Shown: positions 1 through 27,000 of the stretch, piece by piece
Layout: every line of letters begins with the position of its first letter
Position numbering within the stretch: the stretch's first letter is position 1
Source of the DNA: Ascidiella aspersa
Lineage: Eukaryota
Reading direction: 5' to 3'
Assembly: GCA_963924565.1 (NCBI GenBank)
Contig: OZ004608.1
Location: 25,358,001 to 25,422,000, forward strand
Length of the DNA: 64,000 nucleotides
The notes under the pieces: generated by a model
Told to the model about the DNA's origin: nothing
The model's input: only the letters and a program-made list of their open reading frames with translations
Databases searched by the model: none
Translations under genes and position numbers: made by a program

Positions 1-3000
1 CTAAAAGGTATTGCGGTCAATTTTAAGTGCGCTGTTGTTTTAATTCTACAAAAGTTACACTATTGGTGTTGTAAAGATTTTTTTCGTGGTCGAATATGCA
101 ACTAATGTTTTCGAACAGGATACAAAAGGAAAAGGATTCAATGACAATTCGACATTTTGAACAAGTCGACAATCCTACATAGAAAATTAGGCTTTTTTCA
201 GCCTATACATAAATAAGAATATTTGATTTTCTGGGGCACGTGATGGTGCAAACCTGTATCGCAGTTCGAAGCTCATGAGTTCTCCTGCGATCTTGGTCGG
301 TTCTTCCCAAGTAACGACCACTCGGCCGTTAGATAAACCGAGGATGAGAGTGGGTGGTCCAGGTACTTTAAAACCAAAACAAGGTCTGTGTTTAAAAATC
401 GAATGGAAACTATTTAACAGCTGTTAAAAAATTGGAAATTGAATTATTTCGTTAGTTACGTTAAAAGCAACTTTTCAAACGTTAAAACATTCGTGACATC
501 AACACTTACTCTCTCCTCTTGTTGACTCCGATACGACGGCACTGAAGGGGCCTGAACTTTTACTCGTAAATCCTGCTACTCGCACGGAGTACTCGGTCTT
601 TGGTCGTAGACCGGTAAGAGTATAATCCTGGAAAAAAATAATTTACAAGTGTAAAAAATAAAGTACACATCGCTTAGTATATAATACACAAAAAAAGTAT
701 ATATCTATTTTTTTTTTCAAAAATTAATGGTTATACCAGTTCTTGATAAATTTAATTGAAACAATGTAAATGCGATTCATTTAATTTCATATCTTAAACA
801 TGAATTTGCCACAAAACAATGCAATTTTTCGTAGCACAGAATGCTGCAGTGTGAAGGGAAAACCAATTAGTCGGAAACAAAATTGCACCATCATCAATAT
901 AGCAAGGGGTCAGTAAAGGGAAGGGGTTAAGGTCATATAAGGGTAAACAGAAACCGGTGGATTCAATGACGGTCCACAGCAGAACGATTACACCAAAAAA
1001 TCATGCTGTTAATTAAGGAAATATCAGCGAAAAAACAATACTCGACAGCCGATGCCGGCGTCGGCAACATGGACGATTAGGTTAAAGCTTGATCACATTA
1101 GTTTTGTATCATGGCCAGTAGTGTAATGCATATTGCTGCCTGCAACTGGGATGCGTCTCACCATTCGCTCAATGCAGAGCTCGTAGCGCTTTCGCGATTG
1201 TCTATTGCCCCGGCACTGAAGACACAAAGTGCACTTAAGAAAAATCGCTGCAATACGCTATACCTTGCTATTGTCACTGTCCGTATTATTGTCACAATAC
1301 GTTTTTCTTATATAAAAATCAATAATCAAATTAGGGGCAGCAGAATACTCTAGCAAAGCTGCTAGCAATTCAGGCCAGACACTATTCAAAGATCTTAAAA
1401 GATATTTATACGCCAGCAAAGGCATTGTCAGAAAATCTTATTAAAATTGAGTTATTTCAACAAGATATACTGACAATGCCTTTGCTGGCGAAAGAAATCT
1501 TTTAAGAACTTTTGATAGTTTTTGACCTAAATTGCTAGCTTTGCATTCTGCTGTTATTGATCAGGAATTAAGATCGACATTTAACCTGTACGGGGAAAGG
1601 TGATTTCCATTATCAAATATTTAGTGCAACATTAATACTATATTTCTCCAGAAAAACGGTATACGCGTTCCTTGGTTTATTTATGAAACGCTAATGGACT
1701 CTTGCAGCAAACGTCGAACAAAATACAAAACAAATACAAAGTAGCTTAACTTTCACAGAAAAAAACTTAATAAGCCAAAAGTGAGCAACATCGCCCAGAC
1801 AAGAGGTAAATCACCCACCAGTCCGCGATTTGGATCCTGGCCAACGAAGTCCTCCATGTAGGTGTTGACGATGCGAGATCTGCTATGCGGTGAGGCCGCG
1901 TACGAGATCTGGTATCCCCGTATCTGGCCGTTGGCCGCCTCAGGCGACACCGCCAGCCAGCGGATACGAATCGCCGAACTGTTTACCGCTTGGAGGTTGA
2001 CGTTGCGCGGAGCAGCTTCGGGGACTGTACGAAAAATTAATAAGAACATTTTGGGTTGCATGCAAAAATCACATACATTTTTCTGTAAAGTCTGTAAAAT
2101 GTTCAAAGTATATGCTGGGAATTAATGTCCTGTTAGAAATTCGGATGTTTTACGACGATAGAATAAACCCGCACTTCCTGTTTACATGCACGTAAATGCT
2201 TTTTGGACAGCGTGCAAAAGGTTTAACGTATAAAAAATTATAAACGGTTCAATAACAAATCAAGGCATAATATATAATTATATCCTTGCTCTTTACAACA
2301 AATATGGGTCAAAATGCAATTATTCATATCTCTCTTTGTTCAACATGAAAACAAACATACTTGACTCGGCTGTGCTTATTTTCACTATTTTGCTGTCGGG
2401 GCCTTCCCCTTCTTCAGTAGAGGCGCACACCCACACCACGTAGTTGGTGTAGGGGCGTAGGCCGGAAATGACGGAACGAGTCTCTTCGGCCCCGACCCGT
2501 TTGCTCATGACGTCATTACGTCGCTCGATTTTGTAGTAGACAGTGAAGGCGGTGAGTTCGCCGTTCTGTTGCTCTTCGGGAGGCGGAGACCATCGAACCG
2601 CAAAGGAGTTGGCGGTCACTTCGCCGGCAACGACATCTAGTGGCGCCGCGGACGGAGCTGTTGCGGTCACGAGGTGGCGCGCCAAACGAAACATGCAATA
2701 TGCGTTGCATTCAGATAAGCATGCGCGAGATACAACATTTACGAGCGTTCGGAAGCAGGTTCGAGTTCGGTGAGGGATCGCGGGTTGTACGTTCACGACG
2801 GACACAACGAAGAAGATGCAAAAGAAAAAAAAGAAAAAAGAACATCAGATAGGAGGTTAAGGGGTTAAACCTTACTGTTACATTACTTTGATTTCTTACG
2901 CAAGTTTAAAACTACATGAATGTTTTTCCAATGCTAAGTCATGATACAAAACGTAGTGATAGTAAATAGCCTCTTGGCCTGGTTATTTATTTTTGTTAAA

Positions 3001-6000
3001 TAGTCTCACTCAGGGTCCGCGTAACGCTTGGGACCGAATAGCACTTTACTTGGGGGGGGGTTATATTATCAGCACGTACAACTGCAAATATCACATAGAT
3101 TTCGTCTTACCGTCGGGGCGCGTTGTCAAAGAAATTAAGGGCGTGAAGGCGCCAATGCCGGTCTCAGTCCTGGCCGCCAGCTTAATCTTGTACTCGGTGT
3201 TCGGGGTTAAGTTGTTCAACACGAAGTTCTTTGCGTTACGGTACATCGTCAACTTGCGCGGCTGCGTAAAAATAAATGAATAAAGGTTTCGGCAACAGCA
3301 GATGAGTTGGTATAAAACTGGTTTTCAGACAGGTGCTTTGCTTAGGGATATTTTTATCGTTTTTGTTGCAAACAGAAACCTGCTCAGCATCGAAATGTAC
3401 TCATAGTTATTTTGTTATATGCCAGTTTTTATTTATCGTTGAGAGGCTACTGAATAAGACTAGAAGCTGGAATCTTGTTAATGTGGCTTTGTACTTATGA
3501 TGCAACGCCCTTGTTGTATTTAAATATAAAAAAGGAAATTTACTTATGTATATGAACATTGCAGGGGGTTGACGTGTCGGCAAGTTAACACGAAACTGTA
3601 CACGGTCGAGAAGCGGGCGTCTGCCTGTGTTAACATCAAGTACGACAGCAGTAGTAAATGACCTATAAGTATGTTGGAGTGATGTCTCCGGTGATAAGCT
3701 TTGCTGTGCGACGCAATGGCTACACGAACATTGAATTTGCAGACGAAAACATGCCCATCAATTTGAACACAGCTAAGAAGGATTGAGGAAGGTTAATCTT
3801 AGGTTCCAATTATGATACAGGAAAAGCGCGTTATGGCTACGACAACAAAAAAATCTTACAAACATACAGCTTCATTATGGCTAGGCGTATACTGTGAGGT
3901 ATCTTTTGAAACTTAACCAGACGAAAGCGAGTTTGTATTGCGAAATAATATTGCGTCACTTTTGCTACCTCTGGACAGGACGAGCCATTGCAGCTGGTGT
4001 AGGAGAGTATGTAGTTGTTGATACTGGGCTTGGGACCGTCCTCGGTGGCTGGCCCGACATAACAAGGCGTGCTCCACTGCAGGCGAATCCGCTTCGACGA
4101 GAGAGCTACTCCGCGGAAATCCTGTGGCTGCGACGGCACTGTAGGCCGAAAATATTGAGTGAGTTTTTTTAGAAAAGAACAAAACTTCCTGTCACAGGTC
4201 AACAGGAAATAATTCATTTTTAAGTTTGGATATTAGGAAGTGGATTGATTTTGCCGAACATCTGGCCTGGCATTACCAGTTTGTACATCTAACTTAAATT
4301 TTACAGTTTTCTGGTAAAACTAACTGGCTGCCTTAAAAATATTGTAATCTGTTTAGGTATTAAAAGCACCACTGGGTCTTGTTATCTTGTGGCATGTCTC
4401 GAAAAATAACACGACTTCGTAATGCTTGTACATTACGAACAAGTTAGGCCTTTAGCGAATAAGCATATACACAATGTTCAAACCTCCTTGGTCGGTCTTC
4501 ACCATCACCATTTCAGACATGGGACCGATGCCGACGGAAGTTGCAGCAGCCAATCGGATCGCGTAAGTTGCGTGTGGCGTCAGGTCCTTCAGTGACGTCA
4601 GGCGCTTTTCGCTCACCAGCGAGTTCCACTCTGAAACGTTTTTATGTTTTTTTTTTTGCATTACGTGCGTATTTGGACTATTGAAGTGGTTACGTAGCAG
4701 TGTTGTTGTCTAACACCGAAAAATTGCTTGACGGTTTCTAGTGAGTCGCAGACGATTTAATGAATTTGTTTTATTTTAAAAACAGCTTTGATGAATCAGA
4801 ACATGAAAAAATAGATCGATTTTATCGATAACGTTTGGATGGAATCAAAAAATTGATTTATTCTCTATCCAGGATAAACAATGCGCCACGAAAGCATAAA
4901 ATATCTATATTTTTAAAGATTTATAGAAAGCTGTAATTTTTTTCCGGACCGAACAACTCGTAGGTTGATTTCTATTCTTTCGCCAACGTAGGTATATTTA
5001 TCCTTCAAATTTTGACAAGCTTTATTATTAGGGGTGCGCCATTAGCGTGCAATCGACTGACAGGCGCAAGAGAAGGAATTTGCGTTACCTTGGAAATTCA
5101 CGGGAAGAAAACTGACATCAGGCGGTTCGCGACGACCGCGCGTTAAAATCACACCGGCAGAAATATCGACAGGGCGCGCATTAAGCGTCTCAATGCATTA
5201 CAGATTTGACGAGGCGCCAAAGCACCGCAGACCACAGTCGAGTCAATATCCTGTCTAATGAGTTCCGGGTGCCGCTTTTCATCTTCCGTGACAATTGATT
5301 TGCCTCGCAGGGGACAGGGGTGGACGCGTGCGCTCATGAATATTTACGAACACGAAAGCGCCGGGGTTCGAAATATGGGGGGGGGGGGGCATAAATAATT
5401 GAAGTCCGACTAGAATGCGATTTCAAGTCCGAGCGCAAACAGCGAAAAATACACGAGTCGGATAAACAAAGCAAAACTATGGCGCGTGTGCGACAGTTAC
5501 AAAGACAATTTCGACCCTTTACATTTCGAATTCGGCAGCACGCTCATCAATATTAATCAGTCGCTCTCACTCAGCATTTCGTAATACGCGAGATGCTTTT
5601 TCAGACGCTGGGCGGCTGAAAGTCGCGTCGGATTTGGACGGTATTAACAAAAACAAAACAAAGAAAAAAACGAAATGTTTCACCGCAAGATAAAACAGGA
5701 TTGGGACTTTAGGTTTCAATGAGCTGCATTATTATAATATGTCTAGGTTTGACAAAAATGTTTTACTTATCGCGCGTTTTTTTAACATAAACGAAGCAGT
5801 GGCGGGATTTTTTCTTTTGTATAGGCTTGCATTCCAAAGATACAACCGTGGGAAAATAAACAATAAAATTTGTCAGACACAAAACGGAAAGTTTCTAGTT
5901 TAAAGGTGGTTGGAGCCACCCAATCTTCTTATTCGACACGCCGAAGGTTTGTCTTAAATAAAAAAAGGTCGAATCATGTGCGTATTTTAATTATCTGTTA

Positions 6001-9000
6001 ATCGTACAGGTGGGAAAAGCGAAAATTTTACATACCGGATATTGGCAGGGCTGGCAGGCTTGTGTAGTAGACACTGTAGCTGGTAACGTTTCCGTTCTTG
6101 CGCAGGGGCTCACCCCAACGAACCATGACGGTGTTGGTGCCGTATGGGTAGGCCTTCACATCAACAGGGGGACTTCCCGGAGCTGAAAATAAACAATCAA
6201 GTTAACTGTAGCTCCATGGGACAACGTTTTTTTTGCGCAATCGCCGCGGTATGAGAAGCAAACTGAACAATACCAGGCCAACGGACGTTAAATGATCGCA
6301 ATTGTTTTTTAGGCAAATAGCCCGGCTGCGTAAACATTCGAAAGGCCAATACTGCCTTTCTAAAGACCGATGCAAAGAAAAGCAAACTTAAACGGGCGAG
6401 AGATGTAAACAGAACTAAAGCGCACCGTTTCGACGAACGCGATCCAAACGGCAGCGAGTATTGCACCTAGTCCGTCAGTGCAATCGCTTCTCGCTGTTTA
6501 TTTACCCTACATGCTCATCCTATGTGTGTCCACAACAGCGAACGACAATCGGTGGGAGTTGCACTGCCGTGTGTGAGAACCGATTAGCCGCGTGCGAACG
6601 CAAAAGATATGTTTAGTTTATCTCAGTTGGGCGAGGAAAGCTAGTGTTGCTCCGTACGTTTAAATGTTGGCAAAGGATAGAAATATACGGAATTTGTTAG
6701 AAATGAGTTCTGTGAATATAACACTAAAATAGATTTTCTTTTTCTTTATGTCCTACACAAAATGCTGGATAGCTAAAAAATACATCAAATTATCATATAC
6801 ATTAAATTAATAAATCGAGGCAGGTAGGTTTTATCTAGCATTTTATCGCAAACATAAGCCCCAGGCAGGACAAAACACAAAGCCTTTTAAATCGGTGCGA
6901 CCTTTTCCATAAAATCGATAGCAATTACCTACTTCCTTTTAAGAGGTCAAGCGCAAAGCATTTAGAGAAAACGAGAACAGCACACGACCATAATTAAAAC
7001 CTTACAGTAAGAAATATTACTTCTGTTTTGTTGTCGTTGATTTTATGTCACAATCTCAATTATATTTAAAATAGAAAGCGCTTAGACCAACCGGACCGCT
7101 GTGCTGTGCGCAATTTCGGTGATAACGAGTTGAGAAAAGGCAGCACAGTACAGCGAGCAAAAAGGAACATCTGGCTGATGTCGCACGCCAAATAAAACCA
7201 GCACGCTTCGGGTCGACCGAATCTAACCGACGGTTTTACGGGTGCACCTGCGCATCAAAAGGCTAAGTCGTGTTTGGGCCACTAGCCAGCATCACGAGTA
7301 TAAGCAAATAACGGGAGCCCGCGCATTTCGGGCTACTGTCCTCTGTGTTTATAAATGTGTTTATAAAAGGGTGAGTGCCTATGGCGTGTCGCCCTCGTCA
7401 CAAAACAAACCACAGGCCAGGTGAAGCGGTAACCTTGCAGGTTCGGTATCAAGAATCTCTAATCTGAATTTTGTTAAAACATTTCATATCCAACAGGGCG
7501 TAAGTAAGCAAAAGGGGGGAAAGTGCTCCAATATATTTTGTCTCGGATAACTGGAATTCATTTTGGTGTGTTCATGTGACTGAAAAAAACCTCAACATTG
7601 ACACATTCGGAACACTTAATAATAAATGACTGTGGTTAAGTGTAAGAAGCCAAAAAGGGGGCGTTCTGTTTTAGAAAAAGAACCTTATAGTTGTGGCCCT
7701 ACCTGCTTCTCCGGTTCTGAGGTACACCGGGGTGCTTTTCGCTCCTTCCCCTTGCTCGTTGACTGCAGCCACACGAATCTCGTACATCGAATAAGGCTCA
7801 AGTCCTGACACTGTGAAGCTGTAAGGAAAATAAAGGGAAATTCAACCTAGGGTTACAACTGTCGAATTGCATTAGGTGTCATAACTACACAGCTTATTAA
7901 GATGATATAGGACAGGTCTACGCGACCTTTTAGGCTTTGCCATTCATTATTAAGCTACACAGCTTATTTTATCGACACCTAGTTTCGTTAAGTTTATCTA
8001 ATTTTGCAATGGGAACGTTGTCCAATCTTTGAAAAGTCTATATTTGTAAAATGTTGTTGTATTTAATTGAATATATGTATCGTAATCCGTAAGCGGAGTC
8101 AAAAAAACAAAAAAATACATTTTTTATTAGGCGATCCGTTGGGCATGAGCCTTTTAAGCGTTATTTGACGTGTATCCGCTTAGTTATTAATGCGATTCTT
8201 AAAAGCTAGATTGGCCGATCCCCAAACGTCAACATGGCCTCGTCGAGATTAAACAGACAATTCTACATTTTTCAAGTTCTTATTTACGTCGTTTTGCAAC
8301 AGAGCTTCACAAATATGAAGATGGTTTTGGAAAAAGAATTAACTTAATGAATTATTGCAAAAGTCGAAACCAAGTGAAGCCATATAACGTTTTAAGGTGG
8401 CTGTTTGTACTGGCCTTAAACCGTCGGGAATATTCTGAAACCTTTAAGGTCCTATTTGCGCAACACGTGACGCAACGTAAGCAAATAACGTCAGAAGAAC
8501 CGCAGCGTATCCGGCATACAGCTAGCGCAGTGAAAATAAAAGACGTATTAAATGGTGAAACGTTGGATAGAAAAAGCGTACAGACTTGCCGTCTAATGGA
8601 GGCCATTGTCAGGAAGAGAATCAAATAAAAAATACGTTTCTTTGATCTGAAACCGCTCGAAGACTATGAAGATCAAACAGTTTCCGAATCTTGGAAACTA
8701 TTTTAGGCCTTACCTTGTGGACGAAACCTGGTACAGGGTTTGGTAAGGCGGCGTACTAAGCATCGGCTTGTAGTAGATGGTGTAGCTGCTAACCGGCTCC
8801 GCGTTGCCCGACCTCCACGTCACAGAGAGCGATTGTGACGAAATCCCTGCGTCACCCAAGCGCCGAAGATCAACAGGAGGCTGCGTCAATACAAGCAGTT
8901 TAAGTAAGTTAGATTTTAACAGGATTTAATACTAGATTGTAAATTTGTAACCATGCTTGCTGATTCTGTCGATTTCTTTGAAGTACTGAAATTGGTTATA

Positions 9001-12000
9001 TGGTTTATTTATTATTCAGAATTTGGAATAAATATTGTTTTTAATTAAAAAATATGCGACCTATCTCGAATTGAATACGTTATGCACCTTGTCTATAGAC
9101 AGAAGACAACCTACATGAAAATAGTACAACTCTATAACACCTGCGCCCTTACCCAGGGGTAATAGCTTGAAACTAAGTGTATTCAACACATATTGAAGAA
9201 ATTAACACGCCTCAGCTTAAAATGAGACATACACAATCAGCCGAAAAGCACCACTTTCAATAAAATACGACATTAACTGACCTTGGGAATGGCCTTGACC
9301 CGCACGTGGGTGGTGACGTTGATTCCATTAATAAAGGAGCTCGCCTCGCATGTGTAGTTGGCCGATTCTTGCACATTCTTAAGCGGAAGCACCAGCCGTC
9401 CGATTACCACCGCCGACTTCTCAGGCAGGACGTCCACGAAACCGTATGGCGTTTCTGTTTTCAGAATAGAAGACAAAAATTGGTAACCGTTTTACAGGAC
9501 AAGTAAAGTGACTCTTTTAGTTTCCTTGTTTGATTTGAAAAGGTTGGACCTACACAACATTCCGAGATTTTATGTGAGCGTTTGGGCCCGGGATAGGTTC
9601 TTACGCATTCATACGCCACAGTGTGACATCCACTAAAGAGCCACGTATATGCCGGTACTTACGTTTGCGCCACTTAACCCTGGGCATGGGAGCTCCTACA
9701 GCCACGCAAGTGATGTTGATGTCGCCGTTCTGCGCCACTTCGTAGCTCGCATGCGGCTTAATTGAAAAGCGCACGGGAACGCGACGCACTGTGGATGACA
9801 AATTCACACTTGTAAGTACAATGTACACTAACAAGAAAGAGCTTGTATAAGTATAGTGCTCATTTAAACTCTTCAGTCAACGGCCCGCCATATTACATCA
9901 AAACTTTCCGAAAATCTTTCCGATAGATGTAACACTTGAATTGATGTTACTATTTTTGTAATCCATATTGTTCGTTGCGTAACCCTTGCACAATCGCGAC
10001 CCTATAGTTTGCGAAGCTCAGCTTATAATTTGAACAGCTTGAAATGGGTACGTTTGCTGCCTAACGTTTATTGCCAATCAGTATAAAAACACCACTACGG
10101 CATTGTAAGATATCTGATTTCGAAGACCCAGTCGTCTGCTTAGATAAACTTTATTTAAGGTAGCAGATTGTCACATTTCTCACGGTGGGCCCGCTGATAC
10201 GTCCAAGTCGACAGAAATATCTTACAGGTAAGGATATACCTCCAGCGGACTACGCAGTTTAAAAATAACAAACTTGCTGCAGTGCTTTGCAAGGCGTACG
10301 CAAACACTACTTTACAACAACAACAGAGACAACATGTTGTGTATGGTTTCTTTTATAAAAAATAATTCTGAAAAGTGTCCTAATGATTTCTAATATTCTT
10401 TGCAAATAGTTGCATATGGATATAATAATTCTGTAACGATATAATTCAATAAACAGCAATTCAGAAAAGAATCATTGCATTAAACAATTGATTCTCGAAT
10501 ACACATCGTCACATATAAATAGCAAAAATATTCCTAAATATGCAAACAATGAAACGAGAATGTTCGCAAAACACGAATATTCCCAAAAACAAAATGAAAA
10601 GTTCATTATTTTGGAAGTGTCAAATAATGAACGCTGTAGTCGTTTTTGTAACATCATGAACGTTTAACTTTACTAATATATACTTACGATCGCGCACTAT
10701 GGTACGATCCAGAAGTAAGATTTCAAGGAAAGAACGAAAGAAAATTAAAATCGATAAGTGTAACACGGATCCATAAAAGAACACCGACATCGGGTTTTAA
10801 GGGTATAATTTTGATATGTTTCGCAAAGGCAAGCGTATGTCTTAGTTATCGATTTTAGATACACGTCCAGACAAAAGGCTGAAAGAAAAACGTTTGAAAC
10901 AAATATAAAAAACATGTAACGCCCGAACTTAACAAAAATGTCAACTTTATTAGAGCCTCGAAATTTGTAAAACTTACATTTTCAAGAGGGATTTTTTCAA
11001 AATGCAGTCAAACCAAATTTTGCTTTTTTACTTTTTCTGTATCTTAATCTACTTGCTTCAAACTTAGCTAATTTTATTGAGATAAAACTATTATTTTTCT
11101 ATAGTATATAAACACAAGAGAGACCGCATAAGCATACGTTAGCTGTAAGGGGGTCGTTAGTTTCCTAAAATATTTGATCAGATAGTACCTTTAACGTAGA
11201 GACGGGCATCGTCAGAAAAGATTGTCCCGAAAGAGTTGCTGGCTGAGCAGTAGTACCTCCCATCGTCGCTGTAGTTGCTTTTGTGAATAGTAAGCGAACC
11301 TGGGAGAAAGAAGCAAGTATATAAACCATCCACCTTCTTAGAGCGATGTCCAAAATATTTTTAGAGAAGGATACACGGATAATCACTTGTAAATACGAAG
11401 AACGAAATTTGTTAAAAATTAATAAACAGACGTCGTTTTCGCTAGGTCGTGTGGAAATTCTTGCACATAAGAAATGCAATCCAAATTAAGAAACACCATT
11501 ACTACCTGAATTAAGCAATCATTAATAGGAGATCAAAACCGATGGGAAATTCGTGTGCGCATGAACCATGTATATTTGATGAGAAACAGTTTATAATATA
11601 AACGGCCCTAATTTTCTTCAATTGTGTCAATCTACGACACCAGATAAAACTCTATTACAAAACGGCGTGCCTTAAATAGGAGCTAGATTTCGAAATAACA
11701 AATCAAATGTACGACTTACAAATTTTGTCAGCGATGCTGCAAACAAACGTTAGCCGGACTAATTTCGAGTTTGGGGCATAAATAATGCAACAACTCCATT
11801 TCATTTGTTGTGCGCATATGTAACGTGACAAGGTCAAACTTGGCGGGTTAAAGGTCACGTTCGTCGAGTAGCTTTAAAATCGAAACTTGCAGCTCGTTGA
11901 TTTTGAGTTCATATTTTCGCTCGTTAAGTTAGCGGTCTTGCCTCATGGGTAAACATCATTATTTTTTTATAACGCTTTCTAGCAAGCATTACGTCACGCA

Positions 12001-15000
12001 ATGTACATCTAACCGGCATACTTTTATACAGTAAAAAAATTATTTGTATTTTACAGATGAAACCAGGTATAGTTGGATTTTCACATTAAGCATCAAACCG
12101 TTTGTTAAACTTTGGTTTTATTTGAAAATGATTATAAATCCTTTTTGAAAGGACTGTTCGATTTCTATATCGATCAAGGTACGTAATGTACTAATACGGC
12201 AAAACAATTAAGCAAAATAAAAGAAACGACTTTCATGGTATGACAATATACAATAGTATAGAAGCCTACGTGCTACATCGCACACACAATGTTACTAATA
12301 GGGAGTACAGACCGCACATACAACAAGGCCGATAAAACCCACGATACGAGTGTTTGTTTAACTATTGCGAACCTATTACGTAAGTGGAAATTTGGTGCCG
12401 CTCTTTTGGTGCCGAAATCACACCGCAACTAAGAATTAGACCTTGTGTATTGGGTACATGTCACCACGCCATGTTAACTACCACTTTGACCACGGTATGG
12501 CTTGGGGAAGTAGGAAAGGTTTTCGAGTTTTTTCTGGGTATACGCCCCCGGCATAACCGTGAAGAGGCACTTTGGTTGCTCCTTTCTCTTTTTTAAGTGT
12601 CGGCAGCTGGAACTGTCTCGACAGCGACGTCGGCGAAAAACAAAAAGGCACGGACGTCAAGGTAATTGCAAGGCGCTCGCAATAAACCTGACACTTGCCG
12701 TGGCCAGACTTTTCCGTTGTTTTTAGGTCGACAACTACGCAGGCTTATCGGAGTCACGATCGGAAGGTTCTTGGTAAAATGTGTGCACAGCTTCCAAACA
12801 GCCACCTAAGCGGCAAGGCACGTTCTCTTATCTTACTGTTTGATTGTCGTTCAGGCAACAGTTTGCATCTTTCTTCTTGAATATGGAAGAAGATTTTTTC
12901 ATTTGCACAATTCTTATAAACATATTAAAAAGCCAAGAAACAATATCGAAATGCCCGTTGGAAAAATTTAGCAAATTTTACCGAATTTACAACGAGAAAG
13001 ACTTGTGTTTAAATAAGGTCGTAAAGCGCGACTTTAAACAACAAATGATACTATATTATTATCGTATCATTGCTTAAACTAACTGACGCAAGACCCAAGC
13101 TAACTATATGTACCCCGGTATATATGTATTTAGTACGTCAAAGTCACCGGCGCCAAGCGAAAGTGATGGCTTAATAAAAAGACAAAGTGATAACTGAAAC
13201 GAAATACGTCAATGTCAACGGTTAGGTGTAGTGTGGGGCAACCATGCAGACAGACGGTTTTATTAAATGATCACGACATTGACGCTGCAAGTTTGTGAGC
13301 GCGTATAAGTAGCAACATCATCTGCAAACCGTACTTTGAGCCTTAACGCCAAACAAAAGTAGGACCTTCACCCCATACAGCTCTGCACAACACGGTAAGC
13401 GATAAGCTAACGCCAGCTTCGGGACTGAAGTGAGCCGTCGCGATCGCTCAGTCACGTACGACTGCAAGCTTGTTTGGATACGACACACAAGGAAGCACAT
13501 CGGGAAGCATAAGGCGGGGTCATGGGTGCAAAAGCTTAAGCAAAGTCGCTGGGGACCAGCTCGCTCGGGCATCGATCTGCTCGCTAAATGGCTGCGCTCG
13601 GGTCGCGGGAGAACAGATCGAAGAAACCCTGCGCCCGCGGCCCGGCGTGTCATTTGCCGAGAGCCGATTTGTCAGAAAATCGCATTAGTTCGACCGTCCG
13701 TTCAATCGAACCTAGTTGGTTGGTTGGCTGGCTGCTGGCAGACGGACTTTACACAGAAGAAGATTTATAACGAAAATATAACACAATGAAGCCGGTTTAA
13801 ACGTTTATAATAGAAACTTCAACAACGTTTGGCAACCATGAAATCACAGTTTTCTACAAAGTATTTAAACTCGTCAGAATATACTTGGCTTTTACGCTTA
13901 AAGTTGCGTTCCTAACTGTGTTGTCTTTATTATAGTTTTATAGTAAGTGTCGTCCAAAAACATACGTGGTCAACTTACTGTAGTAATGCGCACAATACAA
14001 CAGCTAAATATAAACAATTATACCACGTAAGAGCCGTGTGAGTAATGTACCAACTTGCAAATTTATCATTTGGTATGCGAAGTAAGTTATTTCAACAGTC
14101 AGAACCATACCATGCATCCTCCGGGCGTATTTAGCGTTCCCAAGATAAGAGCGATGTGGTGCGGCGGTAATGCACCGTAGATGGTAGGGCTGCGGGCAAA
14201 AGTCAAATCCCAGGGCTTACCGCCGCACCGCGAAATGGGTTTGGCTGGGCCGGTAATGAACGTCGCCCAACAGAGGTGGGGCAAATCGCGTGCAACCCCC
14301 TTTTGCCCGTTTGGTTGCGTTGGGCTGGTTTGGCAGTTGGAGCGCAATTTGTCGTTGGGCCATTATAATTATTTTTGATCACGGTTTAGCTTTGAAGAAA
14401 ACTTTTAAGAAGACATTGCTGTGTGTATGTTGTATTAAGTTTAATGAAATTTTTAAATTAGGGCGCAACTAGTAAGGTTGGTGTTGTTACACTGTTATAA
14501 GGTTTTCATAAATAAATAAAAAATTGTTCACAAATATATGATAGTAATAGTTTTAATTTTGTGAACATTTGAATACTATGGCGTGCCATATTATACCACA
14601 TCATTTGTTAAAAAAAGTAAATATTTAATTACGTGCAAGAACGTAGGCTACTGCCATTTGTTTAGGGGGCTATCTAACTGACAGATTGTAACGTTGAAAA
14701 TACTCAGCCGCTTCGAAAACTTGCGTTAATTACACCCAACACACGGCGCATCTAAAGTGAAGGCTAAATTATGGTGGGTACCCAATTAGGGGCGAACACA
14801 AAACATTGGGTTACTCCCGTCAGGTGCCCATATATAGCCCCACCTTCGTGCATTGCTTCAACCCGGGGGGATTGACCCGCGCGTTTACAGTCAACAGTCG
14901 GCCTATGGCGCATGTGGTAAATATGGGGAAAAGATACTTATGTTAAGCTAAGAAGGATTGATTTTTTTTTCAGTCGGCCTGAACTGAAAAGCGCGATACT

Positions 15001-18000
15001 TGCGTTGCACTAGCATTTAAAATTTACAGTTGAATGTGATCTTTCGTTAAAATAATTATGAATATCGCAAGAAAAGATCTTGATATGCTGGTTTCAGCTG
15101 AATTTATCTTGCAAAAGGCAGAACAACTAAACCCTCAAAATCAACTGCACTCCATTATGGAACTGAAGACGTGGTTTTAAGCGATATACATTTTCCTTTT
15201 TAACCAAAAAGCAGATTCTACCCTGGTCTCATTTTACAATGTGCAAATCTCTCGGCTTTTAGTAGAAAAATAGGAGATCCTATATGTTTTCTTTGTTTTT
15301 TAACTGGTCTGTTTATCTAATTGGTAATAACATGTCTGTTTTTATTTAAGTAATTAACATATTGGGATCGACGTATAAAGGAAAAAGTGCGATGCCAGCA
15401 TAGTAAGCAAATTTTTTTTGCACAGTGGTTTATTGTTAGCCATAAGTATCGCAGTTACTAATACGCACACCATCGGAACAAAATGTCAAAGTCAAACTGG
15501 AAGTGGTTTACATAGGCGCTCTACATGCCTAATTAAAAGCTCAAAGTACAAATTCGATCTTAAGAAAATGCCTTCCGCCTTGTGGGGTGCCGCAGACGCC
15601 GAGACTATGTTTGTGTGCAAAGCGGCTGCTGGCCGTTGCTATGCACGCGAGAAACTGGGGAGGGGACCACCATGTGGGCACGAAACGCGACCAGCAAGGG
15701 GGCAACACAAGGTCCGAGTAGTAATTGGCTTGTAACGAACGGAGACGGTTTCCTTTCGTGCTAAAAGCAGCATCAGTTTTAAATCGGCAGAGAGAACGCG
15801 GCTGATCGCATAGCAGGAGATAGCTGAAACTGGTTATCGCGGTGTCGTACTCGGGTGGATTTCGTGTCTAGTTTGTCGACATGCTTTGCGCAAATAACGA
15901 AAAGGCGTTGTCCCAACCGTTGCTAAAAATTAGCGAGGGAATTCATTTTTTTCGTTAACCACGAACACCGTAATAACGTTTTATAATAGATTTCGGGCGC
16001 ATATATACATATTTGTTATATAACAGTGTTTCATTGCGCACTAGTGTGCTATTTACAAGTCAACATGACTATGCCCATAGCGAGCAATTATGAGTATATA
16101 ACAGCTGGAAAATTTTAGAAAAACGTAATCGTAGGGAGCGGAAAATCTTAGCTGGGTCGCTGAGTCAACCATTAACGGCGTATATGACAGATGGGACTTC
16201 CAAAAACTGCCGTGTCTACCACAGCGTCTCCCTGAACGAGGCAAACTTTTGACCTGGCGCAGCACCGACCGTTGGATCTTCATGCAGCACTAAACACGGC
16301 GGGAATGGCAGCTGACGAAAGCGGTTCACGACCCCGTCGGTGGTCGGAGAGGATTAATTGCGAGACGCATCAACGCCGCTCGTGTGCAAACCTTAGGGGA
16401 TATCAAGGCGGTAAATCTTGCCAGGAATCGCCGGGCGCCGAATGACGAATGCTATAGAGTGCAACAAACGCCCGAATTCATCCTCAGCGTTGTAAGACTG
16501 CGGACCACCCATTGGACTGGTGTTTTGTTGGCGAAGTTAATGCGTCTCATAAGTTAGTCGTTCCGTGATTGAGATTATCACCGGGGCCGATGCGTGGGAA
16601 CAGGATGCGGCGTGATGCGGGAAGATTTAAGGGGGCAAACGGGGGTCGGTGGCAAAATCGTTTGGGTGAAATGTTATGACAAGCTCTTAAAACAATCCGT
16701 GATGGGATGGTTTGAAATGCTCGAAGGCAATGCGCATTACGTCAACGCGTCGATAACATTGCTTAACGAATCAACTGACCATTAAAACTTTGATGATCAT
16801 GCCGGCTGATTTAATTAGTTAAGCTCCAAATTACAGAGCACAATTTACATTTTGATTTTTTATAAAGTGTTTCCGCATCAAACAGAACTTTAAATTTCGT
16901 TTGACAACCCAAAAAAGCGGCTGTACTGAAATGCAAGTCATTTTGAGTCAGCTAGTCAATATGCAATAACGAAAAGTTAAAATTTGCCAAAAATAACCAA
17001 TCCGTCTTCCTATCTGTCGGCGACGCCATAAGTTAAAAGACGACAGCTGCATAAACACGTGTCCAGGCGATCGTCCGGTGCACGTTTGGCTCGCCGCACC
17101 AATCCCAAAAGAATTGAATCTAGTGAACTCGATTAAAATTTGACAATTAAAGGGGAGTTGATGGGTCGCGAGGTCAGAAACCCGACACTGATTTGGCAAA
17201 ATAGAAGAGAAGCGAATGATGAAAAAGGAGAACTTTTAAAGTGAAGATATGTGTTCCGCCCCTCGACTTTTGATTCAATATTGGATTATAAAACGGCACA
17301 CAAATGCAATGAAACGCGCTGGTTCAAAAAGTTCATCCAAGCCTAGTTTACCTGACTATAAACCTAAGGTATTCGTATATTGTTAATTAGAAATTGTGCT
17401 CTAAATATAAGGTCACGGCGACCAATAGCTTTTAACGTGTAGTTGACACACAGCGCGGTGTGAAATTCGCCAGCGGAAACCGCTGTGTTGTTGCCGCGAG
17501 ACCGATGCGCATCGCGCGGGGGAGGGTTACAAATAGTGACGTAAATTCCGGGTAGAGACGAAAAGCGCCGCGGGACCAGCTCGTTCTCGCCTTTCGTAGA
17601 AAACGCGATTTCGCGCAAGATCGCCCGACCGAGCACTTGACCCTAGGTAAACCCGCGCGGCTTCTCACGACACGCCGTATCTTGCTGGAGGTTACTTGGT
17701 GTCATTGCTGTTTTTTATACAGGGAAATCTAGCTCACGAGAGACACTTTTTTCGGCAATTTGCTAGTAATTTATCTTATAGCCAAACCATGACAATTATG
17801 CACTTTTTTATCGCGCTCTTACTAATCTATTTTTCGTCATGTGCCCTTAAATTTTATAATTTCATTTTTTAACAATGTATTTTTAAAACAATCTTCCCGC
17901 TTGAAAGATCAATAATTTAAAAACTAACACTTCAAATTGCTACATTTTTGAATAATTATTTTGGACCTATAGATGTATAACTGCATACTAAACTGTTGGA

Positions 18001-21000
18001 TTCCGGCGCAGTTGTTTGACAAACTAAAATCACACATTATTTAAACCTACATGTGCGCCTCGCCCATTTGTTAGGTAGCTTTCCTATTCACACTAAAAAA
18101 AGGTTAGAACTCTAATTTGTACTACCGTCATGCTGGAGGGCTGTGTGGCCTCCCTTCGTGTATATGGGAAGATGGTCCTTATACCAGGTGATAGTGGCCG
18201 GTGGATTTGCCTCCACGCCGCACTGAAGGGTGATGTCGCGAGTCAGTTCCACTGTGTCCACGGTCGGGTTGATCGCAATATGGGGAAATCCACGCGGCTT
18301 TGAATTTTCTGCAAGAAAAAAAAAATATAAACAAGACGCAATTTCGCACATGCACAGCCAATCGGGTAAATGCTTGCTAACAAATACTTTCGGGTTTATG
18401 CTTTTTCCTATCAACGTTGCTTGGAGTTTGGTTTCTCATCGAGGGATGTCAATCCCGGGTAAATGTGCGGCCATCTTAAAAGTGTATAACTAACATAGAG
18501 CGATATTACTCTGCCCGGTGCTACGACACGATTATCTGTTTACATAGGTCAGAGGCTTAGAGCGAAACCCGACGATAACAAGCAGCGTGTCAACGGATCG
18601 CGGCCCAGTTTTAGAGACTTAAAAAAATAACTTCGCAGGCTGTACGACGACGGACGAGCAAACTAAATCCCGCGGGGGGTGGTGGAATACTGACAAATCC
18701 CATTTGCGCAGCGTTCTGTCCGCGCCAGGAACCGGTTCCCCTGGGCGCGATAATTTGAAGAAGTTTTACGCTGCGCACGAGCCAAATTGATTAAGGGACA
18801 TTTTGCAGGCAGTTAATGCGAACGACCTGCGACTTGGATGCGCTTGGCCATTGGCTAGTGACAGATATGAGTGCTGGGTGTATTTTGAGATCTGCAAATG
18901 GTTGTTATGACGTTTTGGGAGACATAGGCGTGCATTATTTATGAATTTGTTAGTTATAGTACATTTTCAATAATTATAACACGACACCGTATTTGAATCT
19001 TTGTTATTCACGCAATTACTCAGCATTCAATGTTCAGCGTTGAAACTCCATATTGCAGCACATGCGTTCTACAACGCTCAACGTTAAACATTAAACAAGA
19101 AACGCAAAGCAGTCGCGTAAATCCACTACGGTTGTATTTCACAGTAAGTTAAAACAGATTTCCTATAATTCCATGCGAAACCCGACACCAGAACCAACCA
19201 AATCCTTTTTGCAAACAACGTTTAGAAGGCCGATTGAAGAAGTCGACCGGTCAGCTATTGTTTGGCGCGTCTAGCCATAAATCCTATGGCAAGATAGAGG
19301 CGGTGGGGAGGCGTACTGCAATACGATACAGGGACAAACTTTAGTTGGATGCTTTTGGTGCGAAGCGATTCAATTGCGGTCAAAGGTGGGTAAAGCGGGA
19401 TTACGAGATCAGCAAACCGATTGTTCACATTTATACTTTCGGGATAACGCATAACGTGAAGTAAATTGGATTTCGATCTGTTTTTTTATTAGTTTATTTA
19501 CTCAACTTTAAATACTTTGTCATCGTGACTCAACGGACACGGCGTGATTTTGTTTTCGTTAGCTTTGTGCGCCGAGAAACGCATGGGGCGGCGTCCGACA
19601 TGGGAGAGTGGCAGTTGCGTATAGCGAGCACGGAGCGAGCAAGTCGAACGTCGGGTCGCGGATGCCAGTCAGAACGCAAAGAGCATGACACGCGGCAGCG
19701 GCCCGAAAAATCGCGAGCGCCTTTGACACACGGCAAGGTTCAGCTGGCGGACTTGACACAGGGGTCGTTTGATGTGCTACTGCCGACCATCTTTGGAGAT
19801 ATTTTCCCAGGGTTTGCAACTGCAAGCATATATTAACGGCGTCCGGGGTCGGATACCTTGGCCGCCGTAAGGTGACACCTTCTCGGCCTGTCAGCCGGTA
19901 ATTATTGCAATTGCGAACGAGGGAAAATCGCGGTGTTGCCACCCACGCGTTACTACTGGGTACTGGGCAGCAGCTTTCCGGTAGGATGTTAAGGAAGTAA
20001 CTGCTTCTGCATGCAAGAATCGGTTTCCGATAGACACAACGGGGCAACAACCTGTGGCAATGGCCACCCACGAGCGTCACATATTTTTAATGAGCTTGCC
20101 ATTTTTTTGAAGAGTAATAGGAAGTAAAGCCCTCGAAACCAGGGGGTTGACTAAACGCAAAGTCAATTTCGCTAGAGGCGGAAGACGCCAGATCTACTTC
20201 CAACGGACGGTCGAGTTGGCTGTTGTAAGTCGGTACGATCACTTGCATGTAATTTGTGCAATACGTGACAGATATACACTTGAACATGCGGTTCCAGCCG
20301 TAAAAAACGCGACAACGAGATGTCAGACGTTGCAACATAAAAAATGTCCCTTTTATTGTCAACGTTTGTCAAGTCTTGAGGTGGTTCATTGACGATTACA
20401 TCTCGAATTTAGAAAAACGCGATTGATGGTCAACTTCAGAAGCCATATAAAGCGTAGGCGTACCTCGAACTGTAATCCAGCAACCTATATCGAGAGCTGT
20501 CAATCCCGCATGAAATGCTATGAAAATCGCACCGATTTTGGCACCAAAAATAGCCATAGTCGTCAAAAGGGATAAAGATCACGCCAAATCCATATTTTCA
20601 TTGAAATTACCCTGTCAAGCAATAAAGGCCACGCAAGACCGACAGTATATCGCGAAAATTCGAAAAGTCGCTGACACACGCAGCATTGGGCGTCACGTGA
20701 CAAGGGGATGGCCAATCGGCAGCGTTGGACGATTTGGCGAAAGACGACAGTTCAACTGATCGACACATGGAAGCGAGGTGGTCGTGTCGCGGAGTAAGGT
20801 GGGTGGTAACAGTTGGGGCTACGAAAATAGCGCCTGCGGTGAAAGGGGGTGTTGACGGTTGGCGTTGGCATGGCGACGTGACAAAACGCGGACCCAAATA
20901 TTTGCCAAGTTCAAAGTTCCCTTCCTGTGTTGCCGCCTGAGGTTATTATTAAACGGTTCGACAGACGTAGAACACAGTGCTCAAATCTTTTGGGGAGAAA

Positions 21001-24000
21001 TGTGGCATTTTAAAAGAGTTATTTTCAAACAAAAGTGATTTATGCGTGTTTTACGAGTTGCCAAAAGATTTTGCACGGAACGGGTGTGGCTCATTTCGTC
21101 ACGGGTATCGATAACGTTGCAGCTGTGTGTAAAAAAATGTTATAGAACAGTGGTTCTTAACCTTTTTAGCTTACGGACCGGTGAAATTTCAAAACAAATT
21201 TTGCGGACCGGTGGACCTTTAAAAATCAAAATCAACCCAAAATGTAATTACGACAAAAGTATGCACCTTAAAAGCAAAGACTGGAAACTTCAATTAAATT
21301 AGCAAATCTGCTGTCTTTCTTATATCATACGTGGTATACGAAAGTTTTTCACACACAACTATAAGACTTCAACGACGTGTAGCCTACTTATATACAGTTG
21401 GGCACAACACTGGGCATTGTAACCTAAAGTTCAGCCCAAAGTAGACAATTAACTTTATGTTACGCCACAATACTGCAAATTACGGAACTGGCGAAGTTCT
21501 TAATTTGGTGAACAAGCTTTTAACATCTTGCATTTTGCAATTGAGATATAAAATTGTAATATATTTGGCGGACCGGCACCGGTCCGCGGACCGGCGGTTG
21601 AGAACCACTGTTATAGAAGACCCACAGAGTTTTGGCATCTCGGGCAAGATTAGGTACATTTCAAAATGCTTCATTGTAGAGCAAAGTTTGCATTTGAGTA
21701 ATATCTATGACATTATCCGGTTCATCACTTTGTTATCAATGTAAAACAACATTGTTTTTCGGCGAACATTTGCAGTACGAAATGACACGAAGATAATTCC
21801 GACCAACAATGTTAATGTGGAATATCTCAAACCAAACAGGTTCACTAAAAAAAAAAAATGCGAATCGTACTTGGCTTCATTCTGTCGGCTTCATATTGGC
21901 TGCCAGCGTGGCAATAGGCAGAACCTGCCATTTTCTCCACGTTTAAACCGCATTGGCTGCTTGTTGTCTTGTTTGCAATCGCTTTGACTACCGACAGACC
22001 ACAAAGCCGTGTTTTTGGCCAACAGCTTATCTCAGGAATTACACGGGATTTATCCACGACGCCATAATGCATTACAACATCGGCGCACACAGGCCAGATG
22101 ACTTTCCGCGCATCGAGACCACGAAATAACGACGTCATCGAAAAACGTTATTTTTGCGACAAAAGGCCGCGGCATCTGCGGTGCTAATCAAAACAGGATC
22201 TTCGCTTTTGGTCCCTTTCAAATTCGAGATCAGTTTGTTTTCTCGTGCTGCCTTGCTCTCTGAAGTCCAACGCTGGAAGAATACCAAAGTCGTGATTGTT
22301 GACGCGGGTTTACGTTGTCAGTTGCCCCGCCAACGATGGTTTTGCGGCTCGTATTTTTAGGACTAAGTGACGTGGATCAAAGCGTACACCGCGCGATTAT
22401 GCTGGATATTCTTTGGAGGAATCTTAGTTTTATGATTAATCGTCATATTTGTTTGCCGGGTTCAAGATTTCTATTTAAAAAAAAACTCGCTATAACGGGT
22501 TTAAAAGCTCAGCTCAGCATAGCGCTTCAACCGGATTTGAACAAGCACACACAATTGGCTATATTTGCGGAATGGATAAAAAGAGCAATTTCTTTTTCGG
22601 CGGTGAATAGTTCTATTTAATCGAATTGAAAATTCGCCATGTCATCTCAGCCAATGTGGGAAAGTATGTTAAAAAATCTAGCCTTCCGCTATTCATGTGT
22701 CTATACCCCAGCGTCGTGTGATTCAGATCGAATTAAATTTAAAACAAAGGCAAGCGGCGAGCGAAATTGGCAAATACGTCCGCTCCCAGGCATATAGCCT
22801 TTCAACTTTTCCAAAACAACACGTACAGCGACGAGCACACGGGACCAACGCTTTAATACACAAAAGGCAAGTTCCGAGGGTCGAAAAGTTGCACAACAGA
22901 AGGGTTGGGAAAATAGGAAGATTGTTTTTTTCACGCGCAACAAAATTAGCCGTAAAATGCTCTGTGAATAAATGAACAGCTATTTCTGCATTGATGTCAT
23001 ATATAGCCAGTACAAATTACTACAGTCACACAGCGGATTTAATTAATAGGTATAAGTCATTTTTCAGACTTGCTCGCGCGAAGTGCTTGGCCGAAAGAGA
23101 CTGGCCGATGGGCATTGCGTAACACCAAACTGTGGCACTAGAATATATTACTGAATTTAATTGTGACCGTCGTCGAGGTAATTTAAGTCTCAGACCATTA
23201 TAGCATTCGACTGTGAGCGACTGTCAGGAATTGTCACATGATTCCGATTTAACACCAAAACGTGAAATTATGCAAAACGAATTTCAGAAATTTGCCCAAA
23301 ATCTGGGTGGGGAGGAGAAGAAGACATCAATGGTATTTTAGAATATAAATGGCTTAAAGGCACATTTAGCATTGCTTGGTACATTGGGTAGCTTGAAGAA
23401 CAATGCTACAATTCCTGGATTATCGGGTTGTGTCTGAGAAAATTTCCACCGAGGTAAGACAAAAGAGTTCGCACAGAGCATTTTAGCCGACTGCCTTCCA
23501 GACAAATGTAACACGGCACTGGCCAAATTTGGTAAAGGATCAAGGCGCCTTTCTGCAGGCGGAATACCTGGCTTATCGGTGACCAGATCGGGGCGCGACT
23601 TGGCGGGCTTAAAGATCAGTATCTTGACTAGTCGAGCCAGGCAGTGGCATCGCGACAGGTAGCTCGCCTTAAACGTATAAGTCCCGTAGATCAATCTGGG
23701 CGGGTGTGGGTCAAACGTGCAACGCCGACTCTGGATACACAATGAGTGGGGCAAGCATTTGCGCAAACACACCCAGCCACGTCATCAGCTTTTAATAGAA
23801 AACTAAAGAAGGTGACAGGGAATCTAGGTTGGGCAAGACAGAAAACGAAAGTAGAAGATTATGCTTCTAATGTTAGGCACAATGATGAAATATTTAGGTG
23901 AATCATTTGTGGTATTAAAATGGCTGCATTTCAGCAGTATATATTATGTAATAGAGCTGCCATAATCATTCCTTAATTCCGCGAATTTGCTTAGCGGCCG

Positions 24001-27000
24001 ATGGCCTGAATTCGAGTGCGTGTTGCTGCGAAGATGAGAGGGGTCTGGGTGACTGGATAACGCCTAACGCTCGGCCATTGTCGACTGTCACGCGAGCCTC
24101 CAGCATCGTCGGCTTCTTGAATGGGTGCGGGCGCGAGACGACCGGCGTTGAGTCAACAGTCCCCGCAGTCTGACCGCGATTTGGCGACAACACACTACAT
24201 CGCGCCCTGTTCGATCAAAACCGGCGACCGACCCGTGGCCCAACGATGACTTTGTCAAGTGCTGGCGGAGTTAAATGGCGTGCTGTGTCCCGCAGTGGTG
24301 TTTAACGACGGTGATGGGTGGGATTGGGCCGTGCTTGCTCTCGAACTCAAACTGGGCGTTTTTATCGGCTTCTTTGCTAACTTTTTGTGGCATGTTTAAA
24401 TCCGACATACCGATGTCTTGATTAATTGGGTATGCCTACACTTATCAAAGCACAGCATATTGTAGCTTGGCCATCAAAGAAAAAAAACGCCCGATATTAA
24501 ATCAGGTCATACACAAGTATGTATTTTAAAATGAGCAAATCACAGTTAAAAAATTGTTCATTTTTTTTGCATCATACGGAATCGAAGTACAAAAAAGGCA
24601 ATGCGTCTGGGTTTTATCCAATTACAGGTCACTTAGTCAGACAGTTTACAATGATTTATTTATTGCGGATCGGGTGTATTTAGGCGTTCGAAAAAGGGAC
24701 GGAGCGGTAGCAAAATGGGTCAAACCGTATTGAATCAACGGCAATAAATCGCTTAAGATTTCAATCAGAAAACATCGAAATAACCGTTTCTCCCTCCTAA
24801 ACGACCTTCGGTGCCACGACATTCAAAACGGCCATCTCTAAATGGATAAATAATGCTTTGGAAAGAGTAACTTCGAAAAACTAATACAGATTTATGTCAA
24901 TCCAATCACAGGGTACTTTAATCTGTTTTCCGAAGTAATCCCATCCACAACATCCCTTTAAAATTCAGATTTGAAGTTAAATTCAGATTTGAAGTGGAGT
25001 TTAAACAGCGTGAGCGCAACGTTTTGATATGCAAGGCTAAGGGGCAGCACTGACACTTGGCATGAATCACAGCAGTTACACAGCTCACGGGGTTATTGCG
25101 ATCACTGTCCTGAGCGGGCACTTAGCGCACTTACATCCGTATACCGAGGGCGCGGCTATATCGGGAAGCGATTAGAGGAAAGCGGGAAGCAATTGGGCGC
25201 GCACATTGAGCACCAAATGGTGCGTAAACCGCTCCCGCTTGCAATGCTGTATGATAAGTTGATCTCTACTGATGTCGCTAGCCCTTTGTTTCTTGGTTCG
25301 CTTCGGCCAAGGTAAGCGATGATGACCGTAATAACGTTGATATTGTCTTGGGCCGGCCTAAATGGCACCGAAACTTGGGTTAAGATGAAAGGGGCCCAAC
25401 GCACAATGAGTCATTTCTCGGCTCGATTCGCAACGTGTAAACCAACACATACCAGCGGAGATGGTTATAGTAATGACGGCAACTTGACGCAGCAAAACGG
25501 TCTTCGTATGGACTGCGACGCGCCTTGAATGCAGGTTTAGACGAAACTTGAGACGAACATCGATACAGCCTAAACGAACTACGCGGAATCATTTAAAGGG
25601 TTGTTGGATGTGCGTAAGGACTCGTGTCTCCACGAAACTCAAGTCGTTTTCGTCTTTGGGTCGCATCACGCCGACACAGGTTTTCAGGAGCTACAACAGG
25701 CGGTGTCATGTGTTTAGGAACCGCCTTTAAAAAATCCAATTGTAAGGCGTCCGTTTCAAAATCGAGAGTTCCAAATAAAACAGACCGGGCGTTCGCCTTC
25801 CAATATGAAGCAATTAATTGCGCTTTTCAAAAGGCTTTCGGTCTAACGCTATCGTACGCTTTGCTCAGGCCTTCGCCAGCAAAGTCGCGCTCGTGTCTTT
25901 TCACTTGTAGCGTGACCGGTGCAGGCACAAAGGCAAGAGATATTGGACACGCCCGGTCCGAGCGTCAAACGGTGACAAAAGGAGCGGCGCGGGATTGTGT
26001 TGACGCGTCGTGTCGGTCAATCAATATTAAACGGCTCTATGGCCCATCTGAGACAGAGTGCAGCGTGACGGCTTTAGAAATCGGCACCAATGATTGCAAC
26101 GGACTAGTCGTGGAAATGTTTACGGGCGACTGGTGATTGGGCGTTCGCGATGGAAGCTGGCGTCAGTCGAACTCGCTTGGCGCAGCAAAACAAGGCAATA
26201 AAAGCTCGACAATAAGCGCAAGGTCGCGCTTCGGCTAACTGATGCACTTTTTACAAGCGCAAAACAAAAACACATTGACAACAGCTGAGCGTGCGCTTTT
26301 CCAAATCGGGCAACGTATCTTCCGCAGCGGGTGGCTTTGGCGTCCCGCAGGCGCGCAAATGGATTTGACGCGATTTTACAAGCGGCCTGTTCCCGTCGCC
26401 ATTAAGAGAACTCGGTCGTAAAAAGATCGGCTGTTAACCCTGGTGCAGACACGGGGCTTTGTATCCGAAACTGCAAATCCAATAACTCCAGTTGGGGCTC
26501 AAAAAGAGATAAAGGAGAATCGTGAGAGTTGTATACATAAGGAGAGAGTGAGATAAGGCATTCCGACATGATTTAGCAACTGATGTAACGGCAGATTCTC
26601 TCGATTCGCATTTACCATCCCAGCCGGCCTGTCGAACCCTGACAAATGGCCCGTAAACGACGAACGGGCGCGATTTCAATCTCTATTTGGCTCGGTGTAC
26701 AGTCAACAGTCGTATTTGTCGTCGAGCGCGGTTAAGACCGTGTAAAACCGACGAGTGGCGAAACTCGGGTAGTTATACCGCCACTACTGCGTTCCAAACG
26801 TTGCTTTGGTTTCCTTCCCTTGGTAGGCCGCTAAGTGTTCGTCCGAAGAGATTTCTACACTGGCGTAGAGAGAGAAAAGACCTAGGGGCGGTTGCTGGGG
26901 TGTCGACTGTAGCCTGCAGGACCTAAGCTTTGTACAAGTGTCCCTATCGCGTAGTAATAACAACACGTCGCCGGCGTGAAGGATCACAGTTGTGCGCAAG

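Follow-up and report, generated by a model that had tools for sequence, protein, structure and literature searches.

A basic, two-cysteine optional exon at the meC position of an ascidian LAR-type phosphatase: a candidate ligand-binding switch

The mini-exon meC is the least understood of the LAR mini-exons, and one review describes its function as undescribed in the part of the text available (PMC8711739). In the ascidian Ascidiella aspersa, the intron that splits the fifth fibronectin repeat (FN5) of a LAR-type gene contains a stretch of 54 nucleotides, which the original prediction read as an optional exon at the meC position, encoding a polybasic loop with two cysteines. The question is whether this is a genuine exon, whether it corresponds to meC, and what its inclusion would do to FN5. 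We found no description of a tunicate LAR meC exon in the titles and abstract openings of the papers that our literature searches listed. We propose that the exon may act as a ligand-binding switch, a reading argued by analogy that we rate as evenly poised between right and wrong.

The host gene and its optional exon

The window, which is the whole stretch analysed (64,000 nucleotides of contig OZ004608.1), carries the extracellular part of the gene. Its proposed identity as a LAR-type phosphatase was borne out, as Ig domains, FN3 repeats, a transmembrane helix and the D1/D2 domains were all located. Specifically, tblastn with fish PTPRF placed Ig1-3 and the FN blocks in the window; D1/D2 fell in L009 and L010, the stretches next to it. 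A hydrophobic transmembrane helix could be read in L009, which also retains the membrane-proximal poly-Arg processing site as a run of seven Arg at an exon end. Among 11 query proteins, the highest summed tblastn scores were those of the two Ciona proteins, 1872 for Ciona and 1781 for Ciona savignyi, followed by 1439 for fish PTPRD and with 1298 for amphioxus, as would be expected of a tunicate gene. Between 8880 and 254, eleven exons join into a single open frame from FN1 to the start of FN6 after one donor is shifted by one base (Table 1). The interrupted domain is FN5, as predicted, judged by tblastn, domain match and reading frame; the best match of exon 2024-1819 is FN5 in 6X3A, a structure of PTPRD FN4-FN6 that includes meC.

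Table 1. Features of the LAR-type gene around the optional exon (positions in the window)
Feature	Position	Strand	Basis or remark
Exon starting FN6	254..365	-	The rest, with poly-Arg site, transmembrane helix and D1/D2, follows in L009/L010, to the left of the window
Constitutive exon, FN5 C-terminal part	510..627	-	Begins at the strand preceding the L-x-P-x-T-x-Y motif
Variant-free stretch around the exon, 472 nt	858..1329	.	DNA runs X1, X2; borderline, p about 0.056
5' splice site of the cassette exon, GTGAGA	1156..1161	-	Partial RNA read-through, in two reads of X4 and in X3 contig 851-1190 (depth 3.6)
Cassette exon, 54 nt, phase 0-0; 18 aa, Cys1 and Cys14, net charge +4	1162..1215	-	Sequence and RNA junctions
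3' splice site of the cassette exon, pyrimidine tract and CAG, UGC at -18	1216..1235	-	Junction used in RNA
Palindromic MITE-like repeat, upstream intron	1338..1640	.	Ends approximate; no overlap with exon
Constitutive exon, FN5 N-terminal part	1819..2024	-	Spliced contigs, tblastn, reading frame
FN4 exon	2361..2657	-	
Six exons coding FN1-FN3 (8714-8880, 7703-7818, 6036-6182, 4484-4630, 3969-4138, 3111-3261)	3111..8880	-	
Ig1-Ig3 exons	9282..35117	-	Approximate tblastn blocks

The cassette itself is free of stops throughout its 54 nucleotides and codes for 18 residues, with the two Cys 13 residues apart as had been claimed. Re-reading of the sequence returned the acceptor, ...tttgtgtcttcag, and the donor, gtgaga, as given, and the flanks 2024-1819 and 627-510 join in phase 0, so that the exon preserves the frame whether included or skipped. 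The host intron of 1191 nucleotides offers only two in-frame, stop-free candidates of up to 150 nucleotides bounded by yAG and GTRAG, which share a donor; the pyrimidine tract scores 9/12 at the 54-nucleotide cassette acceptor and 3/12 at the other. A longer form of 96 nucleotides through the acceptor at 1257 was rejected, on its weak tract and the absence of RNA support. UGC upstream of an acceptor is a microexon signal; besides its place in the cassette acceptor, it occurs at one of ten constitutive acceptors.

Several further observations concern the gene at large. FN3 has three Cys (exon 3969-4138) and FN4 one, which is unusual for LAR FN repeats, and these could serve as other disulfide partners. 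The downstream FN5 exon reads KSS at the position of the KGD motif, where Ciona has RGT or RGA; that motif is reported to be conserved in LAR FN5 in the accessible text of PMC9140312. From the sequence alone, the meB intron yielded 0 candidate exons and the Ig2 intron at the meA position 1, a frame-preserving 18 nucleotides on the minus strand (14734-14751). Downstream of the LAR gene, in L010 and L011, lie two genes that look like sugar transporters, the family being guessed from sequence, and the second resembles a frameshifted copy.

Transcripts, codon usage and the surroundings of the exon

Spliced RNA had been set as the test of the exon, and both inclusion junctions, 1819 to 1215 and 1162 to 627, are present in contigs of run X3; that these contigs are spliced is our ground for taking X3 to be RNA. 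The junction from 1162 to 627, with a GT-AG intron between the two, is found in a contig of depth 9.8, and another contig, of 85 nucleotides (depth 13.1), contains the complete cassette followed by letters of the upstream exon. X4 comes from a second study, and about 6% of it was read; there, a model of two reads spliced from 1819 to 1215 reproduces 9/9 of the depth bins tested. The two reads are probably one fragment, which extends into the downstream intron.

For skipping, the junction itself appears in none of the tables. In X3 the long upstream contig (depth 35.3) stops exactly at 1819, and the downstream contig (41.5) starts two letters before 627, at 628, as would be seen at the points where transcripts with and without the exon diverge and rejoin. 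The listed contigs leave a depth of 25-29 unexplained on either flank, against about zero in a control bin. From these contig breaks and the residual depth we infer that a skipped form exists, and contig depth would place inclusion at about 25-34% in this single run. The predicted alternatively spliced, frame-preserving exon is therefore observed in RNA in its included form, its skipping being deduced from contig ends and depth. Enrichment in neural tissue, one of the marks of vertebrate meC, would be a guess for the ascidian exon.

It is possible that an intron segment with good splice sites has recently been exonised and is tolerated, nearly neutrally, in a permissive loop, its Arg and Cys being simply what random codons provide. 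We consider this distinctly unlikely. To judge it we used as a null 2103 overlapping stop-free intron windows, with a GC-rich subset of 508; the patterns of Arg, Lys and Cys counted in them were chosen after the peptide had been seen. At least two Cys occur in 21% of the intron windows, as exonisation would allow, and donor read-through is present in the RNA; zero variants in 54 nucleotides would be expected 59-72% of the time. A homologue of the peptide was also not found: orthologue searches (protein and representatives) returned Ciona as the only named tunicate, a metagenome scan for the cassette peptide was empty, an Atlas search gave generic FN3 matches only, and the exon matches the genome only at its own locus. 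Against this stand the inclusion of about 30%, the preserved frame, the position identical to that of meC and the codon usage, which looks coding-like: the synonymous codon score of the cassette lies above 98.5% of the 2103 intron windows and at the 43rd percentile of coding windows (p=0.047, 24/508, against the GC-rich windows), and GC3 is 0.67 compared with 0.69 in the constitutive exons. The variant-free flanks, although borderline, and the lack of overlap with a detected repeat also count against fresh exonisation. A transposon origin was rejected, as within query 900-1500 only 1338-1493 matched repeats; this neighbouring repeat has very high depth in the DNA runs, and a query over its first part gave 74 other genome matches among 40 scored candidates. 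Taken together, codon usage, composition, variant-free flanks, uniqueness and freedom from repeats favour an established coding exon.

The insertion point and the possible action of the loop

The claimed meC position was examined in 225 LAR-like proteins, of which 212 FN5 loops could be parsed and 13 were missed. In isoform pairs with and without the insert, the insertion point lies six residues ahead of the Leu of L-x-P-x-T-x-Y in mammal PTPRF, fish PTPRD, PTPRS, sea urchin and crinoid, and it is the same in Ascidiella aspersa, a match at the protein level. Inserts measure 9 residues in PTPRF, PTPRD and PTPRS, 6 in Lytechinus (P0318-P0321) and 6 or 23 in Antedon (P0154-P0161), the isoforms of these two echinoderms carrying 0, 6 or 23 residues at the site; in the crinoid, the pattern looks like that of two elements stacked together. 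Since vertebrates, sea urchins and a crinoid also have optional inserts there, optional splicing at this FN5 site, the exon 13 site of human LAR, is on sequence grounds old. No insert was seen at the site in annotated proteins of Ciona intestinalis (0/7), amphioxus (0/15) or tick (0/13 parsed), which may reflect annotation; given the Ciona intestinalis and amphioxus proteins as they stand, continuity with vertebrate meC is a possibility only.

The peptide has no similarity to five known inserts (local scores 6-12, shuffle p 0.24-1.0), which are all free of Cys and have net charges of -4 to +1. An origin as a duplicate of strand E was tried and rejected: under BLOSUM the tail of the peptide was similar to vertebrate sequence (four hand-picked templates, shuffle p 0.0006-0.02), but the similarity failed with profiles (p 0.05-0.22).

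In the ligand-binding switch that we propose, inclusion would add a basic piece of 18 residues to FN5, predicted to form a surface loop by analogy with human LAR exon 13, which its authors placed in a surface-exposed loop; in the same work, as far as its accessible text goes, the nine residues of human meC abolished binding of laminin-nidogen to FN5, and this is the only functional test of vertebrate meC that we found (PMC2133008). Nidogen-2, in the available part of another report, bound LAR FN5 both with and without meC (PMC11329502). The ascidian loop would be closed by a disulfide between Cys1 and Cys14, because extracellular FN5 without the insert has no Cys and the two new ones most simply pair with each other, although the four Cys of FN3 and FN4 may allow alternative pairings. 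So closed, it could mask or alter the binding face of FN5, as human meC excludes laminin-nidogen. As the site keeps receiving inserts whose sequences are unrelated, masking of a binding face would be the simplest function for them to share; it is carried over by position only, as the ascidian peptide has no sequence similarity to known inserts. A single-sequence fold of the meC-bearing homologue P0068 gave a pLDDT of 46, with FN5 below 50.

The basic residues between the two Cys raise the possibility of a cleavage switch, in which a proprotein convertase would cut the disulfide-closed loop after RQSR or RQSRKR, leaving a nicked FN5 held by its disulfide and fold and releasable by reduction. 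The convertase site suggested in the original prediction was upheld in part: R-x-x-R occurs twice and K-R has an Arg at P6, but the prototypical furin motif R-X-K/R-R is absent. A review, in its available text, gives that motif together with the general convertase motif (K/R)-Xn-(K/R), and cites furin cuts at an RQSR site and at a site with Arg at P1 and P6 (PMC8310232); the peptide fits the general motif, with n = 0, 2, 4 or 6 (RGNR, RQSR, KR). Basic sites between two Cys occur in 0.9% of intron windows and 1.6% of the GC-rich ones, yet this pattern was selected after the peptide was viewed, and some convertase-like site is present in 30% of null windows. A tight ring of 14 residues may also resist cutting, and with the canonical membrane-proximal site retained, processing does not need a site in the insert. 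We regard cleavage as rather unlikely; if the loop is cut, the LAR receptor would have a second processing site under the control of splicing.

LAR-family receptors have a glycan-binding site in Ig1, and the loop might instead add a second site for sulfated glycans beside it. The net charge of +4 with its RKR run, opposite to the -3 to -4 of the vertebrate inserts, is what such a patch would call for, and six or more Arg or Lys occur in 1.3% of intron windows (0.3% when two Cys are also required). The heparin-binding consensus patterns XBBXBX and XBBBXXBX, however, both lack a match in the peptide, which has the one RKR run only, and two Glu follow the basic residues; we hold a glycan patch to be quite improbable.

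A lead from a second tunicate genus deserves separate mention. The automated Ciona savignyi model H2YZU6 (P0303) has, at about residues 728-751, a 24-residue block with two Cys at the meC position, directly before the same downstream exon and replacing part of the upstream one. The block is not an alternative frame of known exons, and two Cys placed as in it occur in 3% of 9045 null windows; its alignment with the Ascidiella peptide is not significant (intron-null p 0.08-0.31), and elsewhere the model contains intron-like blocks. From the sequence it is possibly an orthologous exon, or junk. One could go further and imagine that in ascidians the ancestral meC slot houses a loop that is closed by a disulfide and cut by a convertase, with splicing deciding on the FN5 nick and on redox-controlled shedding of Ig1-FN4, and with the Ciona savignyi block as the orthologous, unannotated exon; we think of this as a long shot.

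Comparison with known optional inserts

Returning to the ligand-binding switch, the occurrence of optional inserts at one site in sea urchins, a crinoid and a tunicate suggests that deuterostomes have either kept this splice slot or reused it, and that the peptide filling it turns over completely, in the ascidian case with its charge reversed and two Cys. Such turnover within one slot is an argument for meC working through the surface it occupies and not through a conserved motif. The ascidian exon is a variant supplied by nature on which this could be tested, in a single-copy gene of an invertebrate chordate. The echinoderm inserts are likewise optional and lie at the identical point, and the crinoid indicates that long inserts are tolerated; they differ in being acidic or near neutral and free of Cys, and are known from RefSeq isoform models alone.

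Outside the LAR family, the Z exons of Ciona Agrin are likewise divergent tunicate cassettes at a vertebrate neural splice position that earlier searches had overlooked, as described in the accessible text of PMC12445529. The same text gives them a common motif and 18 YCAY sites, whereas the ascidian LAR cassette lacks a common motif and has 3 YCAY in the 202 nucleotides downstream.

The closest comparison is with meC of vertebrate LAR, PTPRD and PTPRS (also LASE-c, or exon 13 of human LAR), with which the ascidian exon shares the gene family, FN5, the insertion point and optional, in-frame use (PMC2133008, PMC8711739 and PMC2120354, each in the part available). Vertebrate meC is recognised as an acidic peptide of nine residues that starts with Trp, has a charge of -3 to -4 and lacks Cys, whereas the ascidian insert is basic, twice as long and contains two Cys, with no detectable similarity. 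On its sequence, the ascidian exon resembles meC by position and splicing and departs from it in the peptide that it encodes.
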